From the NCBI GenBank assembly GCA_965223265.1, contig OZ244999.1, forward strand, positions 448,001 to 512,000: 64,000 nucleotides of DNA, read 5' to 3'. Shown piece by piece: positions 19,163 through 48,009 of the stretch (position 1 is the stretch's first letter; the number at the start of each line of letters is the position of its first letter). The stretch comes from Planctomycetota bacterium. GTDB taxonomy: Bacteria > Planctomycetota > UBA8108 > SXIK01. The translations under genes were made by a program, and so were the position numbers. Under the pieces are notes generated by a model that made no database searches, was not told the origin of the DNA, and saw nothing but the letters and a program-made list of their open reading frames with translations.

Positions 19163-21866
19163 GACACGCCTGCGGATTCAAGGCCGCCACTCTGCGTTTC
19201 CAGAGGGGTTGCTGTATCGCTGTCTGCGTCGGAGTCGCTTTCTCGTTGTTGTCTGCACTTGCGTCGCCAGCGCCTTCGCGACGTCACCGCGGAACGTTGA
19301 CGCGGATTCGGCGAGCCGCGATCCGTCGGACAAAGAACCCGGCTCACCGCGGCAACTCACCCCAGAGGAAATCGAGAAGCGGCGGCAAGCTCTCTCGCGT
19401 TGGGTGTTCGAGCCCGTGGCCCTCGATGGGGACAGCTTCCGGCTTCTGATCGATCGACGCGACAGCAGCTTTGTGCTGCAAGACCTGCGAACTCAGGCGA
19501 AGTGGTACTCGTCTTGGGGACGACGTGGGTTCGCAAGTGTTCAGCTGGCAGGCGGGGGGGAGCGGGCGGCGGAGTCGGAGACAGAGACGGAGTCGGAGAC
19601 AGAGACAGAGACGGAGGCGGAGGCAGAGACGGAGACAGAGACAGAGACGGAGGCGGAGACAGAGACGGAGGCGGAGACAGAGACGGAGGCGGAGACAGAG
19701 ACGGAGGCGGAGACAGAGACGGAGGCGGAGACAGAGACGGAGGCGGAGACAGAGACGGAAGCAAAGTTAGAGACGGACAGGGAGTTCGAGGCCGATACGC
19801 CCACGCCCACGCCCACGCAAACGCCCACGCAAACGCAAACGCAAACGCAAACGCAAACGCAAACGCAAACGCAAACGGCTTCCAACTCGGCCGGCGATCC
19901 TCAGGCGCGATCGTCCACCGTCTCCGCCTCCGAGTGGCTCGCTCTCGACGAGGTCCTTGAGGTGCGGCCGCGGGGTTCGGTCGTTTCGCTGTTGCTTGCT
20001 CCTCGTGGCCGCGCTGATGTTTTCAAGCTGCGCTGCGAGTTTGAGGTGCTGCCATCGCGGCGCGGGTTTGTGCTGCGCTACGCGGTCGACGCGTCGAGTT
20101 CGCCTGCAAGGCGCTTGCGGCTTCTCGATGCGTCGCTGTGGCTCTCCGATGCGGACGATGGGGCGGCGGCGTACTTGCCGCGCGGTGCTGGCGAGCGGGT
20201 GCGCCCCGGCGCGTCCACGATGTTTCGCCGTCGCTTGTCGGGGAGCCGCGTGGGGATGTCCCATGCTGCGATCGGCGCGGAGGCCGCGGCGATGCCGTTC
20301 GTCGGGGTTCGTAAGGACACGTCGTCGGTGCTGGTGCGTTGGAGCGATCCAGCGTTGGAGATGATCGTGGAGGGGCGAACGACGTCGGACGCGCGTTTTC
20401 CAGGTTCGGATGGGCTTTTCGTGTCGCTCGAGTCTTCCGCTTCTCGCGGTGAGGTGGACATCCTCTGTAGCGGCGGCGGGGAGCTCGATTGGATGGAGCT
20501 CGTGCGCCTCCACCGGGAGACGCAACCTCGGAGAAAGTCGCTACGCTTCAAGACTGGTGCGCAGCGTTCTCATCGCGCTTTGATTGGTGCTGCGATATTT
20601 CGACCGCGCGTCAGTGAATCGCACAGTTTCGATGCGATCGCGCAGCGGGCTGTGGAGCTGCATGAAAAAATCGAGATCGACCGCGCGCTGGTGGTGTTTG
20701 ACGATTGGGGTACTTGTGAGCAAGGGATTCTTCGACCTCGCGCCGATGCCGGTGGGGTTTCGGCGCTGCGCAGAAGTCTTGAGCACCTGCGCGAGATAGG
20801 CTACCTCGTTGGACTGAGCGTTGACACGCGGCGGCTTGCGCCCTGCGCGGCCGGTCGTCTAGGCGCCGAGCCGCAGGGCGCTGCGTCGCCCGAGAATCCG
20901 TGGCCATCGCGGCTCGAAGCCGTGCAAGATTTCGAAGTCTTGGCGTCGGCTGCGGAGCTTGGGCCGGATTTGCTTCTCACTTTGGAGAAGCCATCGCCTC
21001 GATATCCAGCCGCTCTACTGCCTGCGGTGCTCCGTTCTCGCCAGCTCTTTTACGACGAGCTGGGGCGCCGATTCGATCTCCTGGGGCTCGAGGTTGGAAG
21101 CAGTGCCGATCTCGATTCCGCTGTCTACTTCGGGGGGCTTTTGGACACTCGAAGCGCCGTGTCCGAGGATGGGTTGTCCCCGGCCACGTCGGTCCCGCTC
21201 TTCAGCGCAGTGCACGGTCGCCACGTGCGCATTGGGGCTCGCGACAGCCGCTGCGCCCAAGCGGATGACCCTGTCGCCGTCCTCTCTCATCTCATCGCTG
21301 GTGAAGTGCCCCTTTACTCGCTTGTATCGCTTCCTGAAGGATCGGCACGGGCGGTTGAGGATTCCTCGAACGCAACAGATCCTCGGTGGACGTTCGCTCG
21401 GGAGGACGGATGGTGCGCTGGGCGCGACCTGACGCCAGATGAAATCTTCATCAAGAACACCTACGAAGTCCTCTCGTACGTCGCGCGACATCGCGCGCGG
21501 TCGCCCATGTTTTATCATCGCCGTGTGCCGTGCGAGGGGGCCGAGGTGTATGAATCTTTCTTCGGCCATGACCTTAGAGTGCTCGTTAACTATGGTCCTG
21601 GGGTTTTCGAGGATGCAGACGACGAGGTGGTTCTACCGCCGCTGGGGTTTTTCGTTCGCCATCCCTTCTTTCTTGCTTTTCACGCCCGAGCGGTGTTCGG
21701 TGCGGCTTATCGCCAGCCAAGTTTGTTCGTCATCCGATCGCTCGAGGGTAAGATGATTTATCGAGCCGAACGCGTCTATATGTACCGCGGCTTCGGCGAT
21801 CGGCAGCTACGACTCGGCGGCAAGCGGTTCACGGTAGAGCGTGAACTGGTAACGAGGATTCGCTGA
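19152..21866 (+). CDS. Large hypothetical exported protein (distant glycoside hydrolase/DUF5696-like) carrying an in-frame simple-repeat insertion
   Basis: ~900-aa ORF with E/T/A and PT/QT low-complexity insert; PLFSAVH and FIKNTYEVLS motifs; family call is weak. Confidence 0.6.
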   Translation: MTPETRLRIQGRHSAFPEGLLYRCLRRSRFLVVVCTCVASAFATSPRNVDADSASRDPSDKEPGSPRQLTPEEIEKRRQALSRWVFEPVALDGDSFRLLIDRRDSSFVLQDLRTQAKWYSSWGRRGFASVQLAGGGERAAESETETESETETETEAEAETETETETEAETETEAETETEAETETEAETETEAETETEAETETEAKLETDREFEADTPTPTPTQTPTQTQTQTQTQTQTQTQTASNSAGDPQARSSTVSASEWLALDEVLEVRPRGSVVSLLLAPRGRADVFKLRCEFEVLPSRRGFVLRYAVDASSSPARRLRLLDASLWLSDADDGAAAYLPRGAGERVRPGASTMFRRRLSGSRVGMSHAAIGAEAAAMPFVGVRKDTSSVLVRWSDPALEMIVEGRTTSDARFPGSDGLFVSLESSASRGEVDILCSGGGELDWMELVRLHRETQPRRKSLRFKTGAQRSHRALIGAAIFRPRVSESHSFDAIAQRAVELHEKIEIDRALVVFDDWGTCEQGILRPRADAGGVSALRRSLEHLREIGYLVGLSVDTRRLAPCAAGRLGAEPQGAASPENPWPSRLEAVQDFEVLASAAELGPDLLLTLEKPSPRYPAALLPAVLRSRQLFYDELGRRFDLLGLEVGSSADLDSAVYFGGLLDTRSAVSEDGLSPATSVPLFSAVHGRHVRIGARDSRCAQADDPVAVLSHLIAGEVPLYSLVSLPEGSARAVEDSSNATDPRWTFAREDGWCAGRDLTPDEIFIKNTYEVLSYVARHRARSPMFYHRRVPCEGAEVYESFFGHDLRVLVNYGPGVFEDADDEVVLPPLGFFVRHPFFLAFHARAVFGAAYRQPSLFVIRSLEGKMIYRAERVYMYRGFGDRQLRLGGKRFTVERELVTRIR
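19569..19878 (+). repeat. Compound hexamer microsatellite: (GAGACA GAGACG GAGGCG)n followed by (CCCACG)n/(CAAACG)n
   Basis: Directly visible tandem 6/18-mer units, in frame within the ORF. Confidence 0.95.
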
Positions 21867-35441: not shown

Positions 35442-35788
35442 TATACTGGCCGGCTAGCTCGAGTTTGGCCATTTCGCGTCGAGCCTGCCAGCGCCAGGAG
35501 CGTCGAGGCCAAGGAGCGACTCGGGCGCGATCCTGCTCGGGTCGTGGCGGAGGACGGGCGCGGGCATCGGCGCTCCTGGCGTTCCCCGAAGGGCCGGACA
35601 GGAGTTTTTGAACTTTCACAAGGGTTCTCAGGGTACAAAAAAGTTGAAAGGGCCTTTGAATCCCCGCGAAACTCGTCCGGCCAGGCCGGCGCGAAATCGC
35701 CAAACTCGAGGCTAGACCTTCGGCCGCGGCCGTACTCGCGGTGCCTTCATCATTGACCGTCCCCGTGGGTCCACGCCATGGAGAAACT

Positions 35789-38700
35789 GTGAGCCAGCGC
35801 TCAACGCGACGAGAAGAATGGGACATCGACGCAGCCCTGCGGATCCTGCAGGCTTCCATCGATCCTTACATTTGGGATCAAGGGCAGGAGCTGTACCGGC
35901 GCGGCGCCGTCAAGGATTTCGCCATGTCGCAGGACGGCAACATTCGCGTGATCGTCCTTGATCCTCGCGATGCGCGGAACTTTTTCGTTAGCGTTCGACG
36001 CGAGCACGATGGCCGGATCGTCTCACATTGCGCGTGTCCGTATCGCTTGAACGGCCGATGTAGACATCAAGTTGTCGCACTCGAGTATTTGCGCGCGATA
36101 GCCGGTGGGGAGGCTCAACCAACCAGTGCCGCCGCCGCTGATGCTGCCGTCGAGTCGCCGCGCGTCAGTGGAGGCGACGTCAGTGATGCGGCGGGGAAAG
36201 CAGGGCCGGTACTCTACCGCCTATTTGACCCTCCATGCGACGTGGTGACAGCGGAGGACGGTTCGCTGCTGCGCCTTGTACTGCTATCGCTCGGCTCGGC
36301 CACGACGGCGCACCGTGTGGCGCTTCAGCTTTTCACCACGACTGGCTGGGGAGAAGTACGGACGCCGGAACTCGATCGCTGGATCGGCCGCGGAGATGTT
36401 GGGCCGCACCCGCGTGATTTGGCGCTTCGATCGACGCTTGCCGGGGATGGAGGCATTCGAAATGACGTCGATTCCGAGACGTTTGGGTATCTTCTGACTG
36501 TCGTCGCCGAGAGTTCCGCGCTGGTTGACCGATCGGGAAATGTGCTTGCTGTCTCACGCGATCCTTGGCGTCTGCGCACCGATGTGGAACGTTCAGGTGA
36601 GACTTCAATCCGCGTGCGTTTCTCGTGCGTCTTCCCAGGGCGCGAGTCGCGTCGATTCGAAGAGGTGGCGCTCGTCCCTTCGACCAGCGCGTGGATCCAA
36701 CTCGACAGTGGCGCGTTCCATCCCCTGATCGCAGCCGTACCGGGGCCGCTACTCGCTGAGGTGCAGGTCGAAGAGCTGAGTGAGATCGCGCCGCCCGAAT
36801 TGGACCAGTTCTTGATCAGCGGCGTGCATCAGCTCGAACGTTTGACTCCCGGCATGTTCTTCATAGAGCCCGGTCTGATTCGAGAGGTGGAAGGTGTAGA
36901 TAGCGCGCGCGTCCGGTTGAGCGCCATTGGCGACGAGTCTAGTGGAGGCTTTGCCGGTCAGCTTGAATTCCTCTACGGCGACGAATGGGTCGAGGCGCCG
37001 AGCGATCCAACGCCTTGGACGATCGATCAAGGCGGCAAGATCCACCGCTACCCTGCGGCGGGGCAGTCCCTCGCAAAGGCGCGACGTGAGCTCGAGAATG
37101 TCGGCTTCCGCCACGCAGATGGCGAATGGCGGCTCGAAGGGGAAGACGCGCTCGAGCGCGTGTTATCACAAGCGCCAGATTCGTTCGTCTCATTCGATCT
37201 GCCGCAGGAAGCAGCCGCGCGTGATTTTGTGAGTCGCGCACCACGCGTCCGTGTTGCGGTAGAGACGACGGACGAGAACGCAGATGGGACCCCGCAGTTG
37301 CGGCTTTCTCTTGAGCTGTTCGATGGCGATCGGCGACTCAGTTTTTCCACCGCTGAATTTGCTGAGCTCACTCCGGCCGGACGTCGAGGCTTCTTTCGCC
37401 TAGAAGACGAATCGATTGTGGATCCACGCCATCCAGGAGTGCGCGATCTCATCGAGCTGCTCGCCGCCGCCCACCGTTCAGGATCTGAACCGAGCCTCGA
37501 GGATGGGCGGCTCTGCCTTTCTGCGCCCGCGAGTGCAGTCGCGCTCATAGCCGACGCCAGCGATGAAGTGGATTTGGAACTTTCGCCGCGGGTCGCCCGT
37601 CTGTGTGAGAGGTTGAGCGGGCATCGGCTGGACGGGTCGGAAGAGATCGACGCATCTGGTTTTCAGGACAGCGTCGTGAAAACGCTGCGTGAGTATCAAC
37701 TCGCAGCCGTTGCATGGTTCGGGGCGCTCGCCGAGTGGGGGCTCGCCGGAGTGCTTGCTGACGAGATGGGACTCGGAAAGACTTTGATGACTCTTGCGCA
37801 CTTCTTCGGGCGCACGACAGCCGGCGCGCGCTCAGGAGAAGCGGCAGAGCCGGGCCATGCGGCGCTACCGGTGTTGGTCGTCTGCCCGACGAGCCTGGTC
37901 TTCAATTGGCTTGACGAGACGCAGCGATTTTTTCCAGAGGTGCGGACGACGTCGCTGCAGGGACTGCCGCGAGAGAAGCGCGAGGCGCTCCTCGGTTCTG
38001 ATACTGATATGATCGTGACCTCCTACGCGCTGATGAGACGCGACCGGGAGGCGTTGGAAGCGCTGCAGTTTCGTGCTGTAGTCCTCGACGAGGCCCAGCA
38101 TGTCAAGAACGCGGCGAGCCAGACGGCGAAGGCCGCGTTTGCGCTCCGGGCGCAGCAGCGCTGGGCGCTCACCGGCACGCCGATGGAAAACCATCTTGGC
38201 GAGATCTGGTCGATCTTCCGTTTTCTGTTGCCGGGATTCCTCGGTACGCAAGACGAGTTCGTCAAGGAATACCGAGAGCCCGCGGAGCGAGGCGACGACA
38301 CGGCTGTGACGCAGTTGCGACGGCGAGTGCGTCCCTTCATCTTGCGCCGCACCAAGACGGAGGTTTTGACGGATCTCCCTGAGCTGATCGAGCAGACGCG
38401 ACGGGTGCCGCTGTCGCCGCTGCAGCGTCAACTCTACGACGCGGAGTTGGCGGCTGCGCGCGAAGTCGTAGAGGGAGCTGAGGGGCCACAGGCGCGCATC
38501 AAGGTTCTCGCTGCGCTGACTCGCCTGCGGCAGATCTGCTGCGATCCGGGATTGATTCTTGACGACGAAGACCTCGCAACACTGCGAACGACTGAGGAGA
38601 CCGTCGTCAGCAGCAAGATGGAGCTACTCCTCGAGTTGCTTGAGGAGTGTATCGATGAACAGCATCGCGTCCTTCTTTTCAGTCAATTCACCAGCATGCT

Positions 38701-39115
38701 TGATCTCATCGAGTTGCGCCTCGACGAACGTAGCGTCGATCGCTGTCGACTCGATGGCGCAACACGCGATCGCGAGGCTCAGGTGCGGCGTTTTCAGGGC
38801 GATGGCGCAGTGCCAATCTTTCTCATCAGTCTCAAGGCTGGCGGCTACGGTCTCAATCTGACCGCGGCCGACATCGTGATTCTTTTCGATCCATGGTGGA
38901 ACCCGGCGACGGAAGCCCAGGCCGTGGCGAGAGCTCATCGCATGGGGCAGATGATGCCCGTGCATGTTCATAAGCTGGTGGCCGCAGACACCGTCGAGGA
39001 AAGAATCCAGGAGCTTCAGGAGACGAAACGAGACCTGGCCTCCCGTCTTCTCGAAACGGGTGAAGATCCGTTCGCGCAGCTGAATCTCGATACCTTGCGC
39101 GAGCTTTTCGCGTAA
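35789..39115 (+). CDS. SWIM-domain SNF2/DEAD-like helicase
   Basis: CACP...CRH SWIM motif; LADEMGLGKT, DEAQ, TGTPMEN, SLKAGGYGLNL, DPWWNP. Confidence 0.93.
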   Translation: MSQRSTRREEWDIDAALRILQASIDPYIWDQGQELYRRGAVKDFAMSQDGNIRVIVLDPRDARNFFVSVRREHDGRIVSHCACPYRLNGRCRHQVVALEYLRAIAGGEAQPTSAAAADAAVESPRVSGGDVSDAAGKAGPVLYRLFDPPCDVVTAEDGSLLRLVLLSLGSATTAHRVALQLFTTTGWGEVRTPELDRWIGRGDVGPHPRDLALRSTLAGDGGIRNDVDSETFGYLLTVVAESSALVDRSGNVLAVSRDPWRLRTDVERSGETSIRVRFSCVFPGRESRRFEEVALVPSTSAWIQLDSGAFHPLIAAVPGPLLAEVQVEELSEIAPPELDQFLISGVHQLERLTPGMFFIEPGLIREVEGVDSARVRLSAIGDESSGGFAGQLEFLYGDEWVEAPSDPTPWTIDQGGKIHRYPAAGQSLAKARRELENVGFRHADGEWRLEGEDALERVLSQAPDSFVSFDLPQEAAARDFVSRAPRVRVAVETTDENADGTPQLRLSLELFDGDRRLSFSTAEFAELTPAGRRGFFRLEDESIVDPRHPGVRDLIELLAAAHRSGSEPSLEDGRLCLSAPASAVALIADASDEVDLELSPRVARLCERLSGHRLDGSEEIDASGFQDSVVKTLREYQLAAVAWFGALAEWGLAGVLADEMGLGKTLMTLAHFFGRTTAGARSGEAAEPGHAALPVLVVCPTSLVFNWLDETQRFFPEVRTTSLQGLPREKREALLGSDTDMIVTSYALMRRDREALEALQFRAVVLDEAQHVKNAASQTAKAAFALRAQQRWALTGTPMENHLGEIWSIFRFLLPGFLGTQDEFVKEYREPAERGDDTAVTQLRRRVRPFILRRTKTEVLTDLPELIEQTRRVPLSPLQRQLYDAELAAAREVVEGAEGPQARIKVLAALTRLRQICCDPGLILDDEDLATLRTTEETVVSSKMELLLELLEECIDEQHRVLLFSQFTSMLDLIELRLDERSVDRCRLDGATRDREAQVRRFQGDGAVPIFLISLKAGGYGLNLTAADIVILFDPWWNPATEAQAVARAHRMGQMMPVHVHKLVAADTVEERIQELQETKRDLASRLLETGEDPFAQLNLDTLRELFA

Positions 39116-39129
39116 CCCTGCGGTCGAGC

Positions 39130-39256
39130 GCGGAGGCAGAGGCAGAGGCAGAGGCGGAGGCAGAGGCGGAAGCAGAGGCGGAGGCAGAGGCAGAGGCGGA
39201 AGCAGAGGCGGAGGCAGAGGCAGAGGCAGAGGCAGAGGCAGGCAGAGGCAGAGGCA
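39130..39256 (+). repeat. (GAGGCA/GAGGCG)n hexamer microsatellite, left flank of IS array
   Basis: About 21 tandem units visible, with GAAGCA variants and one 2-nt slip near 39241. Confidence 0.97.
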
Positions 39257-39820
39257 CCTATGGTCCGACTGTTGTCAACGGGGGAGCTTTCTTTTCTTGA
39301 TTGTCTTCAATCCGACGTGGGGCAGTTGGGTTGCCTGGGGGTCCGGGGGGCGGCGGGTAGAGCGCCCCCGGGCTCTGTGCAGCCCGGAAGGTACCGCACG
39401 CGGGAGAGATCATTCTGGGTTGCCTGGGGGTCCGGGGGGCGGCGGGTAGAGCGCCCCCGGGCTCTGTGCAGCCCGGAAGGTACCGCACGCGGGAGAGATC
39501 ATTTTCGTAGTAGTGCTGTGTTGTCTTTGGGCTGGCGGTAAAGAAGCCAAGTGTTCGGTTCGCTCTGAGCGCCGGGGCGGCAAAGCGCCTCGCGGCCAAC
39601 TCCTATGCGTGTCCGCTCTCTGGCGGATCACCTGATACTGCGTTCGCATCGCGGCAGGCGAACCGACAAGGACGGTTCCTTCTGAGAAGCACGGCGGCTT
39701 GGAAAGCCAGCCCAGCCTCTGCTCGAACGCGTCCTACAGTCGGCCAAGAATCCGAGTCAGCCCTGCAGGTCCCTCCGTTTGAGTTGGGTTGGTGTGTTGA
39801 GCCTGTTGCTGGTCATCGAA
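39257..39820 (-). ncRNA. 3' non-coding end of the element, predicted to encode a bridge/seek RNA (equivalents at 41036-41510, 42744-43307, 44559-45033, 46267-46830)
   Basis: Long, stem-rich non-coding region downstream of the recombinase as in IS1111-type elements; short matches to target and junction; RNA ends unknown. Confidence 0.65.
39327..39503 (+). repeat. 89-bp tandem duplication within the element (copies 1, 3 and 5 only)
   Basis: TGGGTTGCCTGGGGGTCC...GAGAGATCATT occurs twice; accounts for 1743 vs 1654 bp. Confidence 0.95.
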
Positions 39821-40948
39821 TTAGGAACTGAGCCGTGCCAAGGGAGGTGGTACGTCAGTGCTGAGGAATCGCCAGAGCGAAATGAGCAGCTTTCTGGCTA
39901 AGGCGACGATTCCCGCCTTGCGCGAGCGCTTGGTGCCTGGCCCATAGCGCTGGCAGAACCATTGAGATAGCTGGCTCTGTGGCTGAAAGCGCAGCCAGTT
40001 CCAGGCAGCCTGAACCATGAGTGTGCGTACACGCCCGTTGCCAGCTTTGCTGATTCCTTGCTCGCGTTTGATGTTGTCACTGCGCCAGGGAACGCTCACC
40101 ATTCCTGCCAGGGCTCCGATTTCACGGCGATTGTTGAACTTACGCCAGAAGAACTCGTAGTAGAGCGTTGCGGCAGTGTACATGCCGATGCCGCGCAGGC
40201 TGTTGAGCTTGCCGACTTTCTTGCAGGCCTCCGGCGAGTTGGTGAGCGTTTCGAGAGTCTCGGCCTCAATCTCAGCGATTTGCTCTTCGACAAGCTGCAG
40301 CCGAGCGTGCTCGCGTAGCATGCCTGCCTTGGCATGCGGGGGGATCGCAGATCCATCGGGGCCGCGTAACGTGTCGATGATTTCAGGCAGCTTCTTGAGG
40401 CGGGCGCGGATGCCGAACTTGATCAACATGTCCTTGAGGCGATTGATGTGCCGAGTGCGATCCTTGACAAGGCGCTGACGCTCTCTTGGCAGGCGGCGCT
40501 CGTCCTCGATCTGCACGCTCGGCACATTGACAACGCGCAGTGGGCTGCGCGACGAGCCGTGGTGACGGATCAAAAGATCGAGCATCTTCTCTCCGTCGAG
40601 GCGATCGGTCTTTTGACGCTTGGCGCGCTGATCGACCTCGCAGCTAGCCGGGTCAATGACGGCGTTGTGGATCCCACTGTCTACGAGCCAGCGGTGCAGC
40701 CAGAATCCATCGCGGCCAGCTTCGTAGCAGCTCACCACCTCAGCTTGCGGCGAAAGGCGCAAGCGCGCCTTGGCTTTCGAGAGCTCTTCCTGAAACTCCG
40801 CAAGGTTTCCCGCCTCGACCGTCCTGCAGCGCGGCCGGCTCCCCGCAACACCGCTGACGAGCTTCCACGTTGTGTTGCCAACGTCAATTGCCACGTGAAG
40901 AACTTCGCTCATGTCGGTAAGCTGTCCCTGGGTCGTTCTTGTTGCCAT
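39821..40948 (-). CDS. IS110 family DEDD transposase/recombinase (375 aa), copy 1
   Basis: AID...CYEAG...KTDRLD DEDD tetrad; C-terminal RGIG, PWRSD serine, GISKAGN, VALARKL; AGGAG RBS. Confidence 0.96.
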   Translation of the reverse strand: MATRTTQGQLTDMSEVLHVAIDVGNTTWKLVSGVAGSRPRCRTVEAGNLAEFQEELSKAKARLRLSPQAEVVSCYEAGRDGFWLHRWLVDSGIHNAVIDPASCEVDQRAKRQKTDRLDGEKMLDLLIRHHGSSRSPLRVVNVPSVQIEDERRLPRERQRLVKDRTRHINRLKDMLIKFGIRARLKKLPEIIDTLRGPDGSAIPPHAKAGMLREHARLQLVEEQIAEIEAETLETLTNSPEACKKVGKLNSLRGIGMYTAATLYYEFFWRKFNNRREIGALAGMVSVPWRSDNIKREQGISKAGNGRVRTLMVQAAWNWLRFQPQSQLSQWFCQRYGPGTKRSRKAGIVALARKLLISLWRFLSTDVPPPLARLSS

Positions 40949-40999
40949 CTCTTCACTCCTAAAAAAGACTATGGTACACGAGGACGGCCCATAGTTTCT

Positions 41000-41035
41000 G
41001 AGGCGGAGGCAGAGGCAGAGGCAGAGGCAGAGGCA
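41000..41035 (+). repeat. Inter-element spacer: 6 GAGGCR units
   Basis: Counted directly. Confidence 0.95.
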
Positions 41036-42689
41036 CCTATGGTCCGACTGTTGTCAACGGGGGAGCTTTCTTTTCTTGATTGTCTTCAATCCGACGTGGG
41101 GCAGTTGGGTTGCCTGGGGGTCCGGGGGGCGGCGGGTAGAGCGCCCCCGGGCTCTGTGCAGCCCGGAAGGTACCGCACGCGGGAGAGATCATTTTCGTAG
41201 TAGTGCTGTGTTGTCTTTGGGCTGGCGGTAAAGAAGCCAAGTGTTCGGTTCGCTCTGAGCGCCGGGGCGGCAAAGCGCCTCGCGGCCAACTCCTATGCGT
41301 GTCCGCTCTCTGGCGGATCACCTGATACTGCGTTCGCATCGCGGCAGGCGAACCGACAAGGACGGTTCCTTCTGAGAAGCACGGCGGCTTGGAAAGCCAG
41401 CCCAGCCTCTGCTCGAACGCGTCCTACAGTCGGCCAAGAATCCGAGTCAGCCCTGCAGGTCCCTCCGTTTGAGTTGGGTTGGTGTGTTGAGCCTGTTGCT
41501 GGTCATCGAATTAGGAACTGAGCCGTGCCAACGGAGGTGGTACGTCAGTGCTGAGGAATCGCCAGAGCGAAATGAGCAGCTTTCTGGCTAAGGCGACGAT
41601 TCCCGCCTTGCGCGAGCGCTTGGTGCCTGGCCCATAGCGCTGGCAGAACCATTGAGATAGCTGGCTCTGTGGCTGAAAGCGCAGCCAGTTCCAGGCAGCC
41701 TGAACCATGAGTGTGCGTACACGCCCGTTGCCAGCTTTGCTGATTCCTTGCTCGCGTTTGATGTTGTCACTGCGCCAGGGAACGCTCACCATTCCTGCCA
41801 GGGCTCCGATTTCACGGCGATTGTTGAACTTACGCCAGAAGAACTCGTAGTAGAGCGTTGCGGCAGTGTACATGCCGATGCCGCGCAGGCTGTTGAGCTT
41901 GCCGACTTTCTTGCAGGCCTCCGGCGAGTTGGTGAGCGTTTCGAGAGTCTCGGCCTCAATCTCAGCGATTTGCTCTTCGACAAGCTGCAGCCGAGCGTGC
42001 TCGCGTAGCATGCCTGCCTTGGCATGCGGGGGGATCGCAGATCCATCGGGGCCGCGTAACGTGTCGATGATTTCAGGCAGCTTCTTGAGGCGGGCGCGGA
42101 TGCCGAACTTGATCAACATGTCCTTGAGGCGATTGATGTGCCGAGTGCGATCCTTGACAAGGCGCTGACGCTCTCTTGGCAGGCGGCGCTCGTCCTCGAT
42201 CTGCACGCTCGGCACGTTGACAACGCGCAGTGGGCTGCGCGACGAGCCGTGGTGACGGATCAAAAGATCGAGCATCTTCTCTCCGTCGAGGCGATCGGTC
42301 TTTTGACGCTTGGCGCGCTGATCGACCTCGCAGCTAGCCGGGTCAATGACGGCGTTGTGGATCCCACTGTCTACGAGCCAACGGTGCAGCCAGAATCCAT
42401 CGCGGCCAGCTTCGTAGCAGCTCACCACCTCAGCTTGCGGCGAAAGGCGCAAGCGCGCCTTGGCTTTCGAGAGCTCTTCCTGAAACTCCGCAAGGTTTCC
42501 CGCCTCGACCGTCCTGCAGCGCGGCCGGCTCCCCGCAACACCGCTGACGAGCTTCCACGTTGTGTTGCCAACGTCAATTGCCACGTGAAGAACTTCGCTC
42601 ATGTCGGTAAGCTGTCCCTGGGTCGTTCTTGTTGCCATCTCTTCACTCCTAAAAAAGACTATGGTACACGAGGACGGCCCATAGTTTCT
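41036..42689 (-). mobile_element. IS110/IS1111-type element, copy 2, short allele, 1654 bp
   Basis: Near-identical to copy 1; lacks the 89-bp duplication; 3 synonymous SNPs seen. Confidence 0.95.
41511..42638 (-). CDS. IS110 family transposase, copy 2
   Basis: Protein identical to copy 1. Confidence 0.96.
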   Translation of the reverse strand: MATRTTQGQLTDMSEVLHVAIDVGNTTWKLVSGVAGSRPRCRTVEAGNLAEFQEELSKAKARLRLSPQAEVVSCYEAGRDGFWLHRWLVDSGIHNAVIDPASCEVDQRAKRQKTDRLDGEKMLDLLIRHHGSSRSPLRVVNVPSVQIEDERRLPRERQRLVKDRTRHINRLKDMLIKFGIRARLKKLPEIIDTLRGPDGSAIPPHAKAGMLREHARLQLVEEQIAEIEAETLETLTNSPEACKKVGKLNSLRGIGMYTAATLYYEFFWRKFNNRREIGALAGMVSVPWRSDNIKREQGISKAGNGRVRTLMVQAAWNWLRFQPQSQLSQWFCQRYGPGTKRSRKAGIVALARKLLISLWRFLSTDVPPPLARLSS

Positions 42690-42743
42690 GAGGCGGAGGC
42701 AGAGGCAGAGGCAGAGGCAGAGGCGGAGGCAGAGGCAGAGGCA
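42690..42743 (+). repeat. Inter-element spacer: 9 GAGGCR units
   Basis: Counted directly. Confidence 0.95.
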
Positions 42744-44486
42744 CCTATGGTCCGACTGTTGTCAACGGGGGAGCTTTCTTTTCTTGATTGTCTTCAATCC
42801 GACGTGGGGCAGTTGGGTTGCCTGGGGGTCCGGGGGGCGGCGGGTAGAGCGCCCCCGGGCTCTGTGCAGCCCGGAAGGTACCGCACGCGGGAGAGATCAT
42901 TCTGGGTTGCCTGGGGGTCCGGGGGGCGGCGGGTAGAGCGCCCCCGGGCTCTGTGCAGCCCGGAAGGTACCGCACGCGGGAGAGATCATTTTCGTAGTAG
43001 TGCTGTGTTGTCTTTGGGCTGGCGGTAAAGAAGCCAAGTGTTCGGTTCGCTCTGAGCGCCGGGGCGGCAAAGCGCCTCGCGGCCAACTCCTATGCGTGTC
43101 CGCTCTCTGGCGGATCACCTGATACTGCGTTCGCATCGCGGCAGGCGAACCGACAAGGACGGTTCCTTCTGAGAAGCACGGCGGCTTGGAAAGCCAGCCC
43201 AGCCTCTGCTCGAACGCGTCCTACAGTCGGCCAAGAATCCGAGTCAGCCCTGCAGGTCCCTCCGTTTGAGTTGGGTTGGTGTGTTGAGCCTGTTGCTGGT
43301 CATCGAATTAGGAACTGAGCCGTGCCAAGGGAGGTGGTACGTCAGTGCTGAGGAATCGCCAGAGCGAAATGAGCAGCTTTCTGGCTAAGGCGACGATTCC
43401 CGCCTTGCGCGAGCGCTTGGTGCCTGGCCCATAGCGCTGGCAGAACCATTGAGATAGCTGGCTCTGTGGCTGAAAGCGCAGCCAGTTCCAGGCAGCCTGA
43501 ACCATGAGTGTGCGTACACGCCCGTTGCCAGCTTTGCTGATTCCTTGCTCGCGTTTGATGTTGTCACTGCGCCAGGGAACGCTCACCATTCCTGCCAGGG
43601 CTCCGATTTCACGGCGATTGTTGAACTTACGCCAGAAGAACTCGTAGTAGAGCGTTGCGGCAGTGTACATGCCGATGCCGCGCAGGCTGTTGAGCTTGCC
43701 GACTTTCTTGCAGGCCTCCGGCGAGTTGGTGAGCGTTTCGAGAGTCTCGGCCTCAATCTCAGCGATTTGCTCTTCGACAAGCTGCAGCCGAGCGTGCTCG
43801 CGTAGCATGCCTGCCTTGGCATGCGGGGGGATCGCAGATCCATCGGGGCCGCGTAACGTGTCGATGATTTCAGGCAGCTTCTTGAGGCGGGCGCGGATGC
43901 CGAACTTGATCAACATGTCCTTGAGGCGATTGATGTGCCGAGTGCGATCCTTGACAAGGCGCTGACGCTCTCTTGGCAGGCGGCGCTCGTCCTCGATCTG
44001 CACGCTCGGCACATTGACAACGCGCAGTGGGCTGCGCGACGAGCCGTGGTGACGGATCAAAAGATCGAGCATCTTCTCTCCGTCGAGGCGATCGGTCTTT
44101 TGACGCTTGGCGCGCTGATCGACCTCGCAGCTAGCCGGGTCAATGACGGCGTTGTGGATCCCACTGTCTACGAGCCAGCGGTGCAGCCAGAATCCATCGC
44201 GGCCAGCTTCGTAGCAGCTCACCACCTCAGCTTGCGGCGAAAGGCGCAAGCGCGCCTTGGCTTTCGAGAGCTCTTCCTGAAACTCCGCAAGGTTTCCCGC
44301 CTCGACCGTCCTGCAGCGCGGCCGGCTCCCCGCAACACCGCTGACGAGCTTCCACGTTGTGTTGCCAACGTCAATTGCCACGTGAAGAACTTCGCTCATG
44401 TCGGTAAGCTGTCCCTGGGTCGTTCTTGTTGCCATCTCTTCACTCCTAAAAAAGACTATGGTACACGAGGACGGCCCATAGTTTCT
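42744..44486 (-). mobile_element. IS110/IS1111-type element, copy 3, long allele, 1743 bp
   Basis: Same allele as copy 1. Confidence 0.95.
43308..44435 (-). CDS. IS110 family transposase, copy 3
   Basis: Protein identical to copy 1. Confidence 0.96.
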   Translation of the reverse strand: MATRTTQGQLTDMSEVLHVAIDVGNTTWKLVSGVAGSRPRCRTVEAGNLAEFQEELSKAKARLRLSPQAEVVSCYEAGRDGFWLHRWLVDSGIHNAVIDPASCEVDQRAKRQKTDRLDGEKMLDLLIRHHGSSRSPLRVVNVPSVQIEDERRLPRERQRLVKDRTRHINRLKDMLIKFGIRARLKKLPEIIDTLRGPDGSAIPPHAKAGMLREHARLQLVEEQIAEIEAETLETLTNSPEACKKVGKLNSLRGIGMYTAATLYYEFFWRKFNNRREIGALAGMVSVPWRSDNIKREQGISKAGNGRVRTLMVQAAWNWLRFQPQSQLSQWFCQRYGPGTKRSRKAGIVALARKLLISLWRFLSTDVPPPLARLSS

Positions 44487-44558
44487 GAGGCAGAGGCAGA
44501 GGCAGAGGCAGAGGCGGAGGCAGAGGCAGAGGCAGAGGCAGAGGCGGAGGCAGAGGCA
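44487..44558 (+). repeat. Inter-element spacer: 12 GAGGCR units
   Basis: Counted directly. Confidence 0.95.
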
Positions 44559-46212
44559 CCTATGGTCCGACTGTTGTCAACGGGGGAGCTTTCTTTTCTT
44601 GATTGTCTTCAATCCGACGTGGGGCAGTTGGGTTGCCTGGGGGTCCGGGGGGCGGCGGGTAGAGCGCCCCCGGGCTCTGTGCAGCCCGGAAGGTACCGCA
44701 CGCGGGAGAGATCATTTTCGTAGTAGTGCTGTGTTGTCTTTGGGCTGGCGGTAAAGAAGCCAAGTGTTCGGTTCGCTCTGAGCGCCGGGGCGGCAAAGCG
44801 CCTCGCGGCCAACTCCTATGCGTGTCCGCTCTCTGGCGGATCACCTGATACTGCGTTCGCATCGCGGCAGGCGAACCGACAAGGACGGTTCCTTCTGAGA
44901 AGCACGGCGGCTTGGAAAGCCAGCCCAGCCTCTGCTCGAACGCGTCCTACAGTCGGCCAAGAATCCGAGTCAGCCCTGCAGGTCCCTCCGTTTGAGTTGG
45001 GTTGGTGTGTTGAGCCTGTTGCTGGTCATCGAATTAGGAACTGAGCCGTGCCAAGGGAGGTGGTACGTCAGTGCTGAGGAATCGCCAGAGCGAAATGAGC
45101 AGCTTTCTGGCTAAGGCGACGATTCCCGCCTTGCGCGAGCGCTTGGTGCCTGGCCCATAGCGCTGGCAGAACCATTGAGATAGCTGGCTCTGTGGCTGAA
45201 AGCGCAGCCAGTTCCAGGCAGCCTGAACCATGAGTGTGCGTACACGCCCGTTGCCAGCTTTGCTGATTCCTTGCTCGCGTTTGATGTTGTCACTGCGCCA
45301 GGGAACGCTCACCATTCCTGCCAGGGCTCCGATTTCACGGCGATTGTTGAACTTACGCCAGAAGAACTCGTAGTAGAGCGTTGCGGCAGTGTACATGCCG
45401 ATGCCGCGCAGGCTGTTGAGCTTGCCGACTTTCTTGCAGGCCTCCGGCGAGTTGGTGAGCGTTTCGAGAGTCTCGGCCTCAATCTCAGCGATTTGCTCTT
45501 CGACAAGCTGCAGCCGAGCGTGCTCGCGTAGCATGCCTGCCTTGGCATGCGGGGGGATCGCAGATCCATCGGGGCCGCGTAACGTGTCGATGATTTCAGG
45601 CAGCTTCTTGAGGCGGGCGCGGATGCCGAACTTGATCAACATGTCCTTGAGGCGATTGATGTGCCGAGTGCGATCCTTGACAAGGCGCTGACGCTCTCTT
45701 GGCAGGCGGCGCTCGTCCTCGATCTGCACGCTCGGCACGTTGACAACGCGCAGTGGGCTGCGCGACGAGCCGTGGTGACGGATCAAAAGATCGAGCATCT
45801 TCTCTCCGTCGAGGCGATCGGTCTTTTGACGCTTGGCGCGCTGATCGACCTCGCAGCTAGCCGGGTCAATGACGGCGTTGTGGATCCCACTGTCTACGAG
45901 CCAACGGTGCAGCCAGAATCCATCGCGGCCAGCTTCGTAGCAGCTCACCACCTCAGCTTGCGGCGAAAGGCGCAAGCGCGCCTTGGCTTTCGAGAGCTCT
46001 TCCTGAAACTCCGCAAGGTTTCCCGCCTCGACCGTCCTGCAGCGCGGCCGGCTCCCCGCAACACCGCTGACGAGCTTCCACGTTGTGTTGCCAACGTCAA
46101 TTGCCACGTGAAGAACTTCGCTCATGTCGGTAAGCTGTCCCTGGGTCGTTCTTGTTGCCATCTCTTCACTCCTAAAAAAGACTATGGTACACGAGGACGG
46201 CCCATAGTTTCT
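44559..46212 (-). mobile_element. IS110/IS1111-type element, copy 4, short allele, 1654 bp
   Basis: Short allele sharing two SNPs with copy 2. Confidence 0.95.
45034..46161 (-). CDS. IS110 family transposase, copy 4
   Basis: Protein identical to copy 1. Confidence 0.96.
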   Translation of the reverse strand: MATRTTQGQLTDMSEVLHVAIDVGNTTWKLVSGVAGSRPRCRTVEAGNLAEFQEELSKAKARLRLSPQAEVVSCYEAGRDGFWLHRWLVDSGIHNAVIDPASCEVDQRAKRQKTDRLDGEKMLDLLIRHHGSSRSPLRVVNVPSVQIEDERRLPRERQRLVKDRTRHINRLKDMLIKFGIRARLKKLPEIIDTLRGPDGSAIPPHAKAGMLREHARLQLVEEQIAEIEAETLETLTNSPEACKKVGKLNSLRGIGMYTAATLYYEFFWRKFNNRREIGALAGMVSVPWRSDNIKREQGISKAGNGRVRTLMVQAAWNWLRFQPQSQLSQWFCQRYGPGTKRSRKAGIVALARKLLISLWRFLSTDVPPPLARLSS

Positions 46213-46266
46213 GAGGCGGAGGCAGAGGCAGAGGCAGAGGCAGAGGCGGAGGCAGAGGCAGAGGCA
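46213..46266 (+). repeat. Inter-element spacer: 9 GAGGCR units (same sequence as 42690-42743)
   Basis: Counted directly. Confidence 0.95.
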
Positions 46267-48009
46267 CCTATGGTCCGACTGTTGTCAACGGGGGAGCTTT
46301 CTTTTCTTGATTGTCTTCAATCCGACGTGGGGCAGTTGGGTTGCCTGGGGGTCCGGGGGGCGGCGGGTAGAGCGCCCCCGGGCTCTGTGCAGCCCGGAAG
46401 GTACCGCACGCGGGAGAGATCATTCTGGGTTGCCTGGGGGTCCGGGGGGCGGCGGGTAGAGCGCCCCCGGGCTCTGTGCAGCCCGGAAGGTACCGCACGC
46501 GGGAGAGATCATTTTCGTAGTAGTGCTGTGTTGTCTTTGGGCTGGCGGTAAAGAAGCCAAGTGTTCGGTTCGCTCTGAGCGCCGGGGCGGCAAAGCGCCT
46601 CGCGGCCAACTCCTATGCGTGTCCGCTCTCTGGCGGATCACCTGATACTGCGTTCGCATCGCGGCAGGCGAACCGACAAGGACGGTTCCTTCTGAGAAGC
46701 ACGGCGGCTTGGAAAGCCAGCCCAGCCTCTGCTCGAACGCGTCCTACAGTCGGCCAAGAATCCGAGTCAGCCCTGCAGGTCCCTCCGTTTGAGTTGGGTT
46801 GGTGTGTTGAGCCTGTTGCTGGTCATCGAATTAGGAACTGAGCCGTGCCAAGGGAGGTGGTACGTCAGTGCTGAGGAATCGCCAGAGCGAAATGAGCAGC
46901 TTTCTGGCTAAGGCGACGATTCCCGCCTTGCGCGAGCGCTTGGTGCCTGGCCCATAGCGCTGGCAGAACCATTGAGATAGCTGGCTCTGTGGCTGAAAGC
47001 GCAGCCAGTTCCAGGCAGCCTGAACCATGAGTGTGCGTACACGCCCGTTGCCAGCTTTGCTGATTCCTTGCTCGCGTTTGATGTTGTCACTGCGCCAGGG
47101 AACGCTCACCATTCCTGCCAGGGCTCCGATTTCACGGCGATTGTTGAACTTACGCCAGAAGAACTCGTAGTAGAGCGTTGCGGCAGTGTACATGCCGATG
47201 CCGCGCAGGCTGTTGAGCTTGCCGACTTTCTTGCAGGCCTCCGGCGAGTTGGTGAGCGTTTCGAGAGTCTCGGCCTCAATCTCAGCGATTTGCTCTTCGA
47301 CAAGCTGCAGCCGAGCGTGCTCGCGTAGCATGCCTGCCTTGGCATGCGGGGGGATCGCAGATCCATCGGGGCCGCGTAACGTGTCGATGATTTCAGGCAG
47401 CTTCTTGAGGCGGGCGCGGATGCCGAACTTGATCAACATGTCCTTGAGGCGATTGATGTGCCGAGTGCGATCCTTGACAAGGCGCTGACGCTCTCTTGGC
47501 AGGCGGCGCTCGTCCTCGATCTGCACGCTCGGCACATTGACAACGCGCAGTGGGCTGCGCGACGAGCCGTGGTGACGGATCAAAAGATCGAGCATCTTCT
47601 CTCCGTCGAGGCGATCGGTCTTTTGACGCTTGGCGCGCTGATCGACCTCGCAGCTAGCCGGGTCAATGACGGCGTTGTGGATCCCACTGTCTACGAGCCA
47701 GCGGTGCAGCCAGAATCCATCGCGGCCAGCTTCGTAGCAGCTCACCACCTCAGCTTGCGGCGAAAGGCGCAAGCGCGCCTTGGCTTTCGAGAGCTCTTCC
47801 TGAAACTCCGCAAGGTTTCCCGCCTCGACCGTCCTGCAGCGCGGCCGGCTCCCCGCAACACCGCTGACGAGCTTCCACGTTGTGTTGCCAACGTCAATTG
47901 CCACGTGAAGAACTTCGCTCATGTCGGTAAGCTGTCCCTGGGTCGTTCTTGTTGCCATCTCTTCACTCCTAAAAAAGACTATGGTACACGAGGACGGCCC
48001 ATAGTTTCT
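46267..48009 (-). mobile_element. IS110/IS1111-type element, copy 5, long allele, 1743 bp
   Basis: Same allele as copies 1 and 3. Confidence 0.95.
46831..47958 (-). CDS. IS110 family transposase, copy 5
   Basis: Same 375-aa protein; true start at 47958 by identity with the other copies. Confidence 0.96.
   Translation of the reverse strand: MATRTTQGQLTDMSEVLHVAIDVGNTTWKLVSGVAGSRPRCRTVEAGNLAEFQEELSKAKARLRLSPQAEVVSCYEAGRDGFWLHRWLVDSGIHNAVIDPASCEVDQRAKRQKTDRLDGEKMLDLLIRHHGSSRSPLRVVNVPSVQIEDERRLPRERQRLVKDRTRHINRLKDMLIKFGIRARLKKLPEIIDTLRGPDGSAIPPHAKAGMLREHARLQLVEEQIAEIEAETLETLTNSPEACKKVGKLNSLRGIGMYTAATLYYEFFWRKFNNRREIGALAGMVSVPWRSDNIKREQGISKAGNGRVRTLMVQAAWNWLRFQPQSQLSQWFCQRYGPGTKRSRKAGIVALARKLLISLWRFLSTDVPPPLARLSS

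Follow-up and report, generated by a model that had tools for sequence, protein, structure and literature searches.

A predicted bridge RNA with donor and target guides in an IS110/IS1111-family element arrayed in a planctomycete hexamer microsatellite

An IS1111-like element beside IS621 and the seekRNA systems

The guide, core and handshake scheme of IS621, a member of the IS110 group, is set out in PMC11208158. As outlined there and in PMC11208160, one IS621 RNA carries both a target-binding and a donor-binding loop. Of the two guides in a loop, one is same-sense with the DNA to one side of the core and the other is complementary to the DNA across it. The target loop precedes the donor loop, and each presents a left guide and then a right guide, followed by the bases that pair with the CT core and by the handshake bases. 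For IS1111-group elements, PMC11208160 describes bridge RNAs predicted in the right end, with donor-binding bases that often lie in a multiloop, and the order of the guides is reported to be reversed between IS1111 and IS110 types. The IS1111 seekRNAs described in PMC11187229, those of ISEc11, ISPa11 and ISKpn4, are 82–96 nt long and are presented there together with their target matches.

The window, by which we mean the whole 64-kb stretch of planctomycete DNA analysed here, contains five tandem copies of an IS110-family element. Copy 1 (39257–40999, minus strand) was delimited using its end motifs, a one-copy BLAST search against the genome, its flanks and its repeats. Copies 2 to 5 follow it at 41036–42689, 42744–44486, 44559–46212 and 46267–48009. 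Copies 1, 3 and 5 are 1743 bp long and copies 2 and 4 are 1654 bp long. Three more copies lie elsewhere in the 9.18-Mb genome, giving eight in all, whereas a search of 40 related genomes gave no match at an E-value of 1e-60 or better. The original prediction had described the element ends from the window, and the same ends recur in all eight genomic copies: in the sense of the transposase gene, each copy begins AGAAACTATGGGCC and finishes GGACCATAGG, with ...YCTC flanking it on the left and TGYCTC... on the right.

Each element encodes a transposase of 375 aa (39821–40948, minus strand, in copy 1) with the Pfam domains PF01548 and PF02371. The protein also matches the NCBIfam model NF033542, 'IS110 family RNA-guided transposase', with 194 bits against a cut-off of 140. 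The DEDD residues are present in the translation as D22, E76, D115 and D118, and Ser290 lies in a G..P..S motif, all in invariant columns of our protein alignment (A1). The protein thus combines a DEDD (RuvC-like) domain and a Tnp domain with the conserved catalytic serine of these recombinases. It is somewhat longer than the 330–350 aa given for IS1111 transposases in PMC11187229. IS621 is its sole solved relative and is a remote match (E-value of 0.0027), so the recombinase is only distantly similar to that of the system with which the element is compared below.

The layout of the element is IS1111-like in its inverted repeats, its short left end and its long 3′ non-coding region. The right-end terminus (39257–39278, minus strand) carries the subterminal inverted repeat CGGACCATAG, whose partner CTATGGGCCG lies in the left end at 40985–40994. 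These repeats, CTATGGGCCG and CGGACCATAG, lie 5 nt and 1 nt from the respective element tips. They are about 10 bp long, unlike the arrangement in IS621, and fall within the 7–17 bp of subterminal inverted repeats in the IS1111 subgroup, which also has a long non-coding region downstream of the transposase gene. The left end comprises 51 nt and the right end about 475–565 nt. The right-end terminus also includes TTGACA (39273–39278), and in most relatives, as in the window element, this hexamer stands 10–12 nt before the terminal CATAG; in relatives it is part of CTTGACA. This hexamer may be the −35 box of a promoter that is completed across the junction of an excised circle. We consider the element very probably to be a new member, if not an unusual one, of the known family of RNA-guided IS110/IS1111 transposons.

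A conserved structured module downstream of the transposase gene

Comparative material came from a protein search that returned at least 8000 transposase homologues, from which 80 loci encoding transposases of 39–50% identity were fetched. Iterated nhmmer searches identified a conserved module in 63 of these 80 loci (64 matches). In the relatives the module lies 100–250 nt downstream of the transposase gene, and it was seen in Chloroflexota, Acidobacteriota, Gemmatimonadota, Pseudomonadota and other phyla. In the window element the predicted bridge (or seek) RNA module occupies 39529–39763 on the minus strand, which makes it about 235 nt long here and about 190 nt in relatives. An Rfam 15 search of 38900–45500 in E-value mode gave no match. 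A promoter and terminator scan of one element copy returned no promoter-like sites and one terminator-like site, which was on the wrong strand.

For the comparisons below, 56 unique modules from elements of 39–50% protein identity were aligned, and 53 elements were analysed. Element ends in the relatives were called with patterns of our own, of which the left-end pattern required AG and the right-end pattern a nearby TTGAC-like hexamer. An exact inverted-repeat search for these ends had returned mostly noise, and the end motifs were instead obtained by reading the raw flanks. In the relatives the left end reads flank, AG and then AT..CTATG, while the right end reads CTTGACA, 10–12 nt, CATAG[A/G], AG and then flank.

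A hairpin at 39609–39632 (minus strand) lies between the two predicted donor guides described below. Six of its eight pairs are changed on both sides among the relatives, 95.5% of its alignment cells are paired, and its 5′ strand is an invariant AGGTG. RNAalifold run on the MAFFT alignment of the modules (A2) also recovers this hairpin and recovered only this one. As the other helices were misaligned in A2, we compared cognate with non-cognate strands from anchor positions instead. The 5′ strand of the stem that closes the target loop lies at 39725–39734 (minus strand) and its 3′ strand at 39670–39678; cognate duplexes of this stem have an energy of −17.9 kcal/mol against −13.1 kcal/mol for non-cognate ones (n = 53, p = 4e-13, a value that, like the other p-values reported here, is inflated by relatedness among the loci). 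Its four core pairs are paired in 91% of cases, three of them with changes on both sides, and they read GTTC/GAAC in the window element where the consensus is GCCC/GGGC. Over the hairpin and the closing stem together, 94.2% of the alignment cells are paired, and none of 500 shuffles reached the observed covariation. By duplex energy, cognate strands paired better than non-cognate ones in three long-range helices, with p-values of 4e-13 (P1), 1e-4 (P3) and 5e-8 (P0).

The minimum free energy (MFE) of the 240-nt module region is −108.3 kcal/mol (z = −2.99), and one of 200 shuffles folded equally well. Folding the entire 480-nt non-coding region gave an MFE structure that told us little (z = −1.44). 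Because G-U cells outnumber A-C cells (27 versus 11), the transposase-sense strand is favoured as the one that would be transcribed. The distribution over 63 of the 80 loci, the covarying helices and the fold z-score together point to a conserved, structured non-coding RNA in one non-coding end of the element.

Four predicted guides and the joined element ends

The original prediction centred on an 8-mer, CATAGGAG, at 39600–39607 on the minus strand (CTCCTATG on the plus strand), which was proposed to be part of a donor guide spanning the junction formed by direct joining of the element ends. This match is real: the 8-mer consists of the right-end hexamer CATAGG followed by the AG that starts the left end. 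It is also absent from both integrated ends, as had been stated. The window contains the 8-mer five times where 0.57 occurrences would be expected, and none of 100 shuffles reached five. Each element copy has one occurrence, which lies in its 3′ non-coding region; since the copies derive from one sequence, these occurrences count as one observation. When the 544-nt non-coding region was shuffled 2000 times by mononucleotide, 4.35% of the shuffled sequences contained at least one of the seven junction-spanning 8-mers on either strand. Taken alone, the match is thus only weakly significant, and a second junction had been tried in the original prediction as well.

Comparison with relatives adds to this. 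The 8-mer aligns to a near-invariant motif, GGATAG[A/G]AG, located directly 3′ of the covarying hairpin. The most conserved motif of the whole module, CACGGATAG[A/G]AGGT, contains the aligned 8-mer, and in the window element an additional G-to-C change extends the match from seven to eight nucleotides. In the MFE fold of the 240-nt region, the 8-mer and its neighbours form a 12-nt unpaired stretch within a multiloop. Using a pattern blind to the guide, the right end could be called in 41 of the 53 elements. In 35 of these the variable guide base and the corresponding right-end base were both A (...ATAGA) and in six, including the window element, both were G (...ATAGG); there were no discordant cases, although this covariation rests on a single position because the motif is otherwise almost invariant (Fisher p = 2e-7, uncorrected for relatedness). 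The G state is found in five lineages of the transposase tree, of which at least two are forced by well-supported branches of what was a quick tree search. Outside the 41 called elements, one locus (L068) was found by eye to be discordant, its guide having T where the right end has A. In 34 of 39 elements the base following the guide AG is identical to the first right-flank base, and four of the five exceptions have T opposite C. This is a predicted handshake-type position, matching the right flank of the target.

The second predicted donor guide, AGTAT (39635–39639, minus strand), sits two bases before the conserved GGTG and corresponds, as reverse complement, to the five left-end bases that come directly after the core. 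In the window element it fits its own left end at four of five positions, as the left end reads AAACT where the guide would expect ATACT; the donor guides of this element thus match 8/8 bases at the right end and 4/5 at the left. Among 43 elements, the left-end guide was identical at all five positions in 23 and at four in 13. The mean match was 4.35 for cognate and 3.35 for non-cognate combinations (p = 3e-11). At position 3 the guide and the left end were T/T in 13 elements, C/C in 10, G/G in 10 and A/A in three. The two donor guides would read both element ends across the circle junction from a single donor-binding loop.

Two further segments of the module are predicted to read the target. 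The left-flank guide (39680–39688, minus strand) consists of TTCTC, the core bases AG and the handshake bases AA, which equal the first left-end bases, and it lies just 5′ of a conserved AGATGGGG (AGAAGGAAC in the window element). In relatives this guide is likewise followed by AG and one or two left-end bases. Counted from the core, it matches the cognate flank over 3.32 nt and non-cognate flanks over 0.57 nt (n = 41, p = 2e-25), and individual matches reach 8–10 nt in some elements. The right-flank guide, GCAGAGGCT (39714–39722, minus strand), is located upstream of a hairpin and is the reverse complement of AG plus CCTCTGC. It pairs with the actual TG-core target at eight of nine bases. Across relatives, its longest match was 5.97 with cognate and 4.05 with non-cognate flanks (n = 39, p = 1e-15). 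The candidate target-binding loop thus holds two guides directed to opposite strands of the target flanks. In the MFE fold of the window element the two target guides, at 39714–39722 and 39680–39688, are partly complementary and are paired with each other, a consequence of the target being a tandem repeat. Such self-pairing could mask the guides in the free RNA, if the modelled fold is adopted.

We consider it highly likely that the 8-mer is the 3′ donor guide of an IS110/IS1111 bridge RNA that reads the joined ends of the element. Directly observed are the sequence features and their conservation, the covariation, and the sites at which the element has inserted. The RNA itself would be made, bound by the recombinase and paired with DNA as follows. 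The 3′ non-coding region would encode a bridge (seek) RNA whose guides are divided between two loops. The first loop, closed by a stem of 9–10 bp, would contain a hairpin flanked by the target guides, and the second would be a multiloop in which the two donor guides flank another hairpin. CATAGG repeats the terminal six bases of the right end in the same sense and would pair with the opposite strand; the following AG would pair with the donor core, and the next base would make a one-base handshake with the right flank of the target. Excision would join the right end, AG and the left end, forming the direct junction that the two donor guides read. Exchange would take place 3′ of the core on the CT strand, with each core travelling with its left arm. 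If each core travels with its left arm, the observed junctions follow, and the circle junction is the direct joining of the ends as originally written. This junction would read CATAGG and then AG and AAACTATGG of the left end. Public Logan contigs from four runs containing the element stop at 40992 and 41042 and skip the hexamer tract; they list no joint across the element ends, and none of the runs listed is recorded as RNA.

The arrangement resembles that of IS621 as far as the latter is described in PMC11208160 and PMC11208158. A single RNA would carry the target loop and then the donor loop, each with a left guide followed by a right guide, core-pairing bases and handshake bases. Within each loop, one guide is same-sense to one side of the core and the other complementary to the opposite side. 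The 8-mer occupies the position of the IS621 donor guide (RDG) and its core-pairing bases, with the handshake base next to it, and the AG core of the window element is CT on the other strand. The junctions, too, are what an exchange 3′ of the core on the CT strand would leave. Unlike in IS621, the predicted RNA lies 3′ of the transposase gene, its donor guides are in a multiloop and not in a simple internal loop, and the CT-core frame falls on the other strand from RNA and gene. This last difference agrees with the guide-order reversal reported between IS1111 and IS110 types. Both the right-end location and the placement of donor bases in a multiloop are shared with the bridge RNAs predicted for ISCARN28, ISAzs32 and ISPa11, as these are described in PMC11208160. 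The RNA family of the window element may already be among the IS1111 bridge RNAs modelled there. The module differs from the IS1111 seekRNAs, as these are described in PMC11187229, in its length of about 190–235 nt and in having two predicted donor guides. The element would combine an IS1111-like layout with IS621 logic and a CT core, read on the opposite strand relative to the gene, and the two target guides, two donor guides, core and handshake bases would provide a fully readable guide code for a widespread, uncharacterised clade.

Other explanations for the 8-mer have to be weighed against the donor-guide reading. GGATAG[A/G]AG could be a conserved part of the RNA with a structural or protein-binding role, or else a site in the DNA. 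Its likeness to the right end would then reflect conservation of both within the lineage and involve no donor pairing. Its near-invariance across the 56 unique modules, where only one position varies usefully, would suit such an element, as would the discordant L068. Against this, the variable base agrees with the right end in all 41 called cases, an agreement that spans several lineages. The adjacent base agrees with the target flank in 34 of 39, something that a motif serving protein binding alone would leave unexplained. In IS621, moreover, the equivalent position is taken by the donor guide, core and handshake bases, and we therefore regard this explanation as improbable. We give still less credence to a chance match without function. 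The frequency of junction-spanning 8-mers in shuffled regions (4.35%) and the trial of more than one junction leave room for one, but the alignment to a conserved motif, the covariation of both the right-end and left-end guides, the covariation of the helices and the match of the handshake base all tell against it. The donor-binding segment originally placed at 39600–39607, matching the direct junction, is thus borne out by its lying in a conserved structured module, its A/G covariation with the right end and its IS621-equivalent position.

The second junction considered in the original prediction keeps one hexamer (TGCCTC) as a shared core, with CTCAGAA and AGGTG as donor guides. Both short matches exist, at 39680–39686 (ttctgag on the plus strand) and 39629–39633 (cacct), and within a hexamer tract the boundary of the element can be shifted by a whole repeat unit. 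Neither match behaves as a donor guide, however. CTCAGAA is target guide plus core, as the bases upstream of its AG covary with the left flank, and AGGTG is the invariant strand of the covarying hairpin. The relatives lie outside hexamer tracts and share only AG at both junctions. In addition, the copy at genome position 904588 has TGTCTC on its right, which shows that the hexamer bases on the right side come from the target. A hexamer core is accordingly very improbable, only marginally less so than a chance match, and the donor-guide reading of the 8-mer is the one followed below.

Core mismatch, hexamer tracts and the tandem array

In the relatives AG stands on both sides of the integrated element, which fits a core dinucleotide: it follows the right end in 39 of 41, the two others being the window element (TG) and L009 (GG). 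In the window element the putative donor core AG (CT on the plus strand) forms the left edge (40998–40999, minus strand), and every one of the eight genomic copies shows AG at the left junction and TG at the right. Donor and target thus share only G, and the same core dinucleotide is not found on both sides. The original prediction had remarked that direct joining would imply recombination between a donor and a target with no obvious common core. A donor core does exist, as the relatives show, but in this element it differs by one base from the TG of the target. The difference falls on the base equivalent to the T of CT that is near-invariant in IS621 as described. In L009, AG precedes the left end and GG follows the right end, about 400 nt downstream of the module; this too is a difference of one base, with the same asymmetry as in the window element.

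We rejected as a claim the idea that the AG-left/TG-right pattern of all eight copies is a sign of top-strand-only transposition, as proposed for IS621 in a 2026 preprint. The IS621 scheme, as published, gives the same pattern for any product that follows the top strand, and the five tandem copies may stem from events that were not independent.

All eight genomic copies are located inside (YGYCTC)n hexamer tracts. In the window, the target microsatellite, GAGGCA/GAGGCG on the plus strand, precedes copy 1 at 39133–39256, and further tracts separate the copies at 41000–41035, 42690–42743, 44487–44558 and 46213–46266. The genome contains 112 tracts of at least three YGYCTC hexamers, some of 45 units, and the element occupies only four loci. 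Another YGYCTC tract lies in the window at 19596–19757, and so abundant a hexamer microsatellite is unusual in a bacterial genome. Both target guides match the hexamer tract except for one core base, which is TG there and not AG. Searching the genome with 13-mer patterns gave 83 matches with a TG core and two with an AG core. The two AG-core sites are unoccupied, and one of them lies 58 nt from the copy at 743506; 11-mer patterns gave five matches, about the chance level. Given 83 TG-core sites against two AG-core sites, and 112 tracts, we tentatively suggest that the element naturally works on these near-cognate sites and that the abundant simple repeat serves as a landing pad for multiple copies, although we would put this somewhat short of an even chance. 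Among the papers listed in literature searches for IS110 elements targeting microsatellites, none was relevant. Beside the left end of one relative, L042, directly upstream, is a run of at least seven GAAACCT heptamers, so that this element too lies next to a simple repeat.

If the near-cognate reading is true, every junction would naturally record the arm that each core base had moved with. Natural insertion at core-mismatch sites and into a microsatellite would bear on the specificity and off-target activity of bridge recombinases in genome editing. Current understanding of these systems is not overturned by the element, which we consider moderately interesting for its microsatellite target, its tandem array and its natural core mismatch.

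Along the array at 39257–48009, long and short copies alternate and are separated by spacers of 6, 9, 12 and 9 hexamer units. Because each insertion leaves target repeats on both sides, tandem arrays of this kind would arise if the element entered one tract again and again. The alternating lengths could result from such successive insertions or from a duplication that copied two elements as one unit. Copies 1, 3 and 5 contain an 89-nt internal tandem duplication in their right end (about 39326–39503 in copy 1), positioned between the RNA module and the terminus, and the joint of this duplication is present in public contigs. Outside the window, at G000:C1:6414624-6414687, there is a 64-nt fragment of the right-end terminus that is 94% identical. 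It adjoins a different repeat array, with triple hexamers every 30 nt, and appears as loose ends in public contigs. Within the window, a plus-strand gene at 35741–39115 encodes an SNF2-family helicase of 1124 aa (PF00176 and PF00271) and ends 18 nt before the first hexamer tract of the array.
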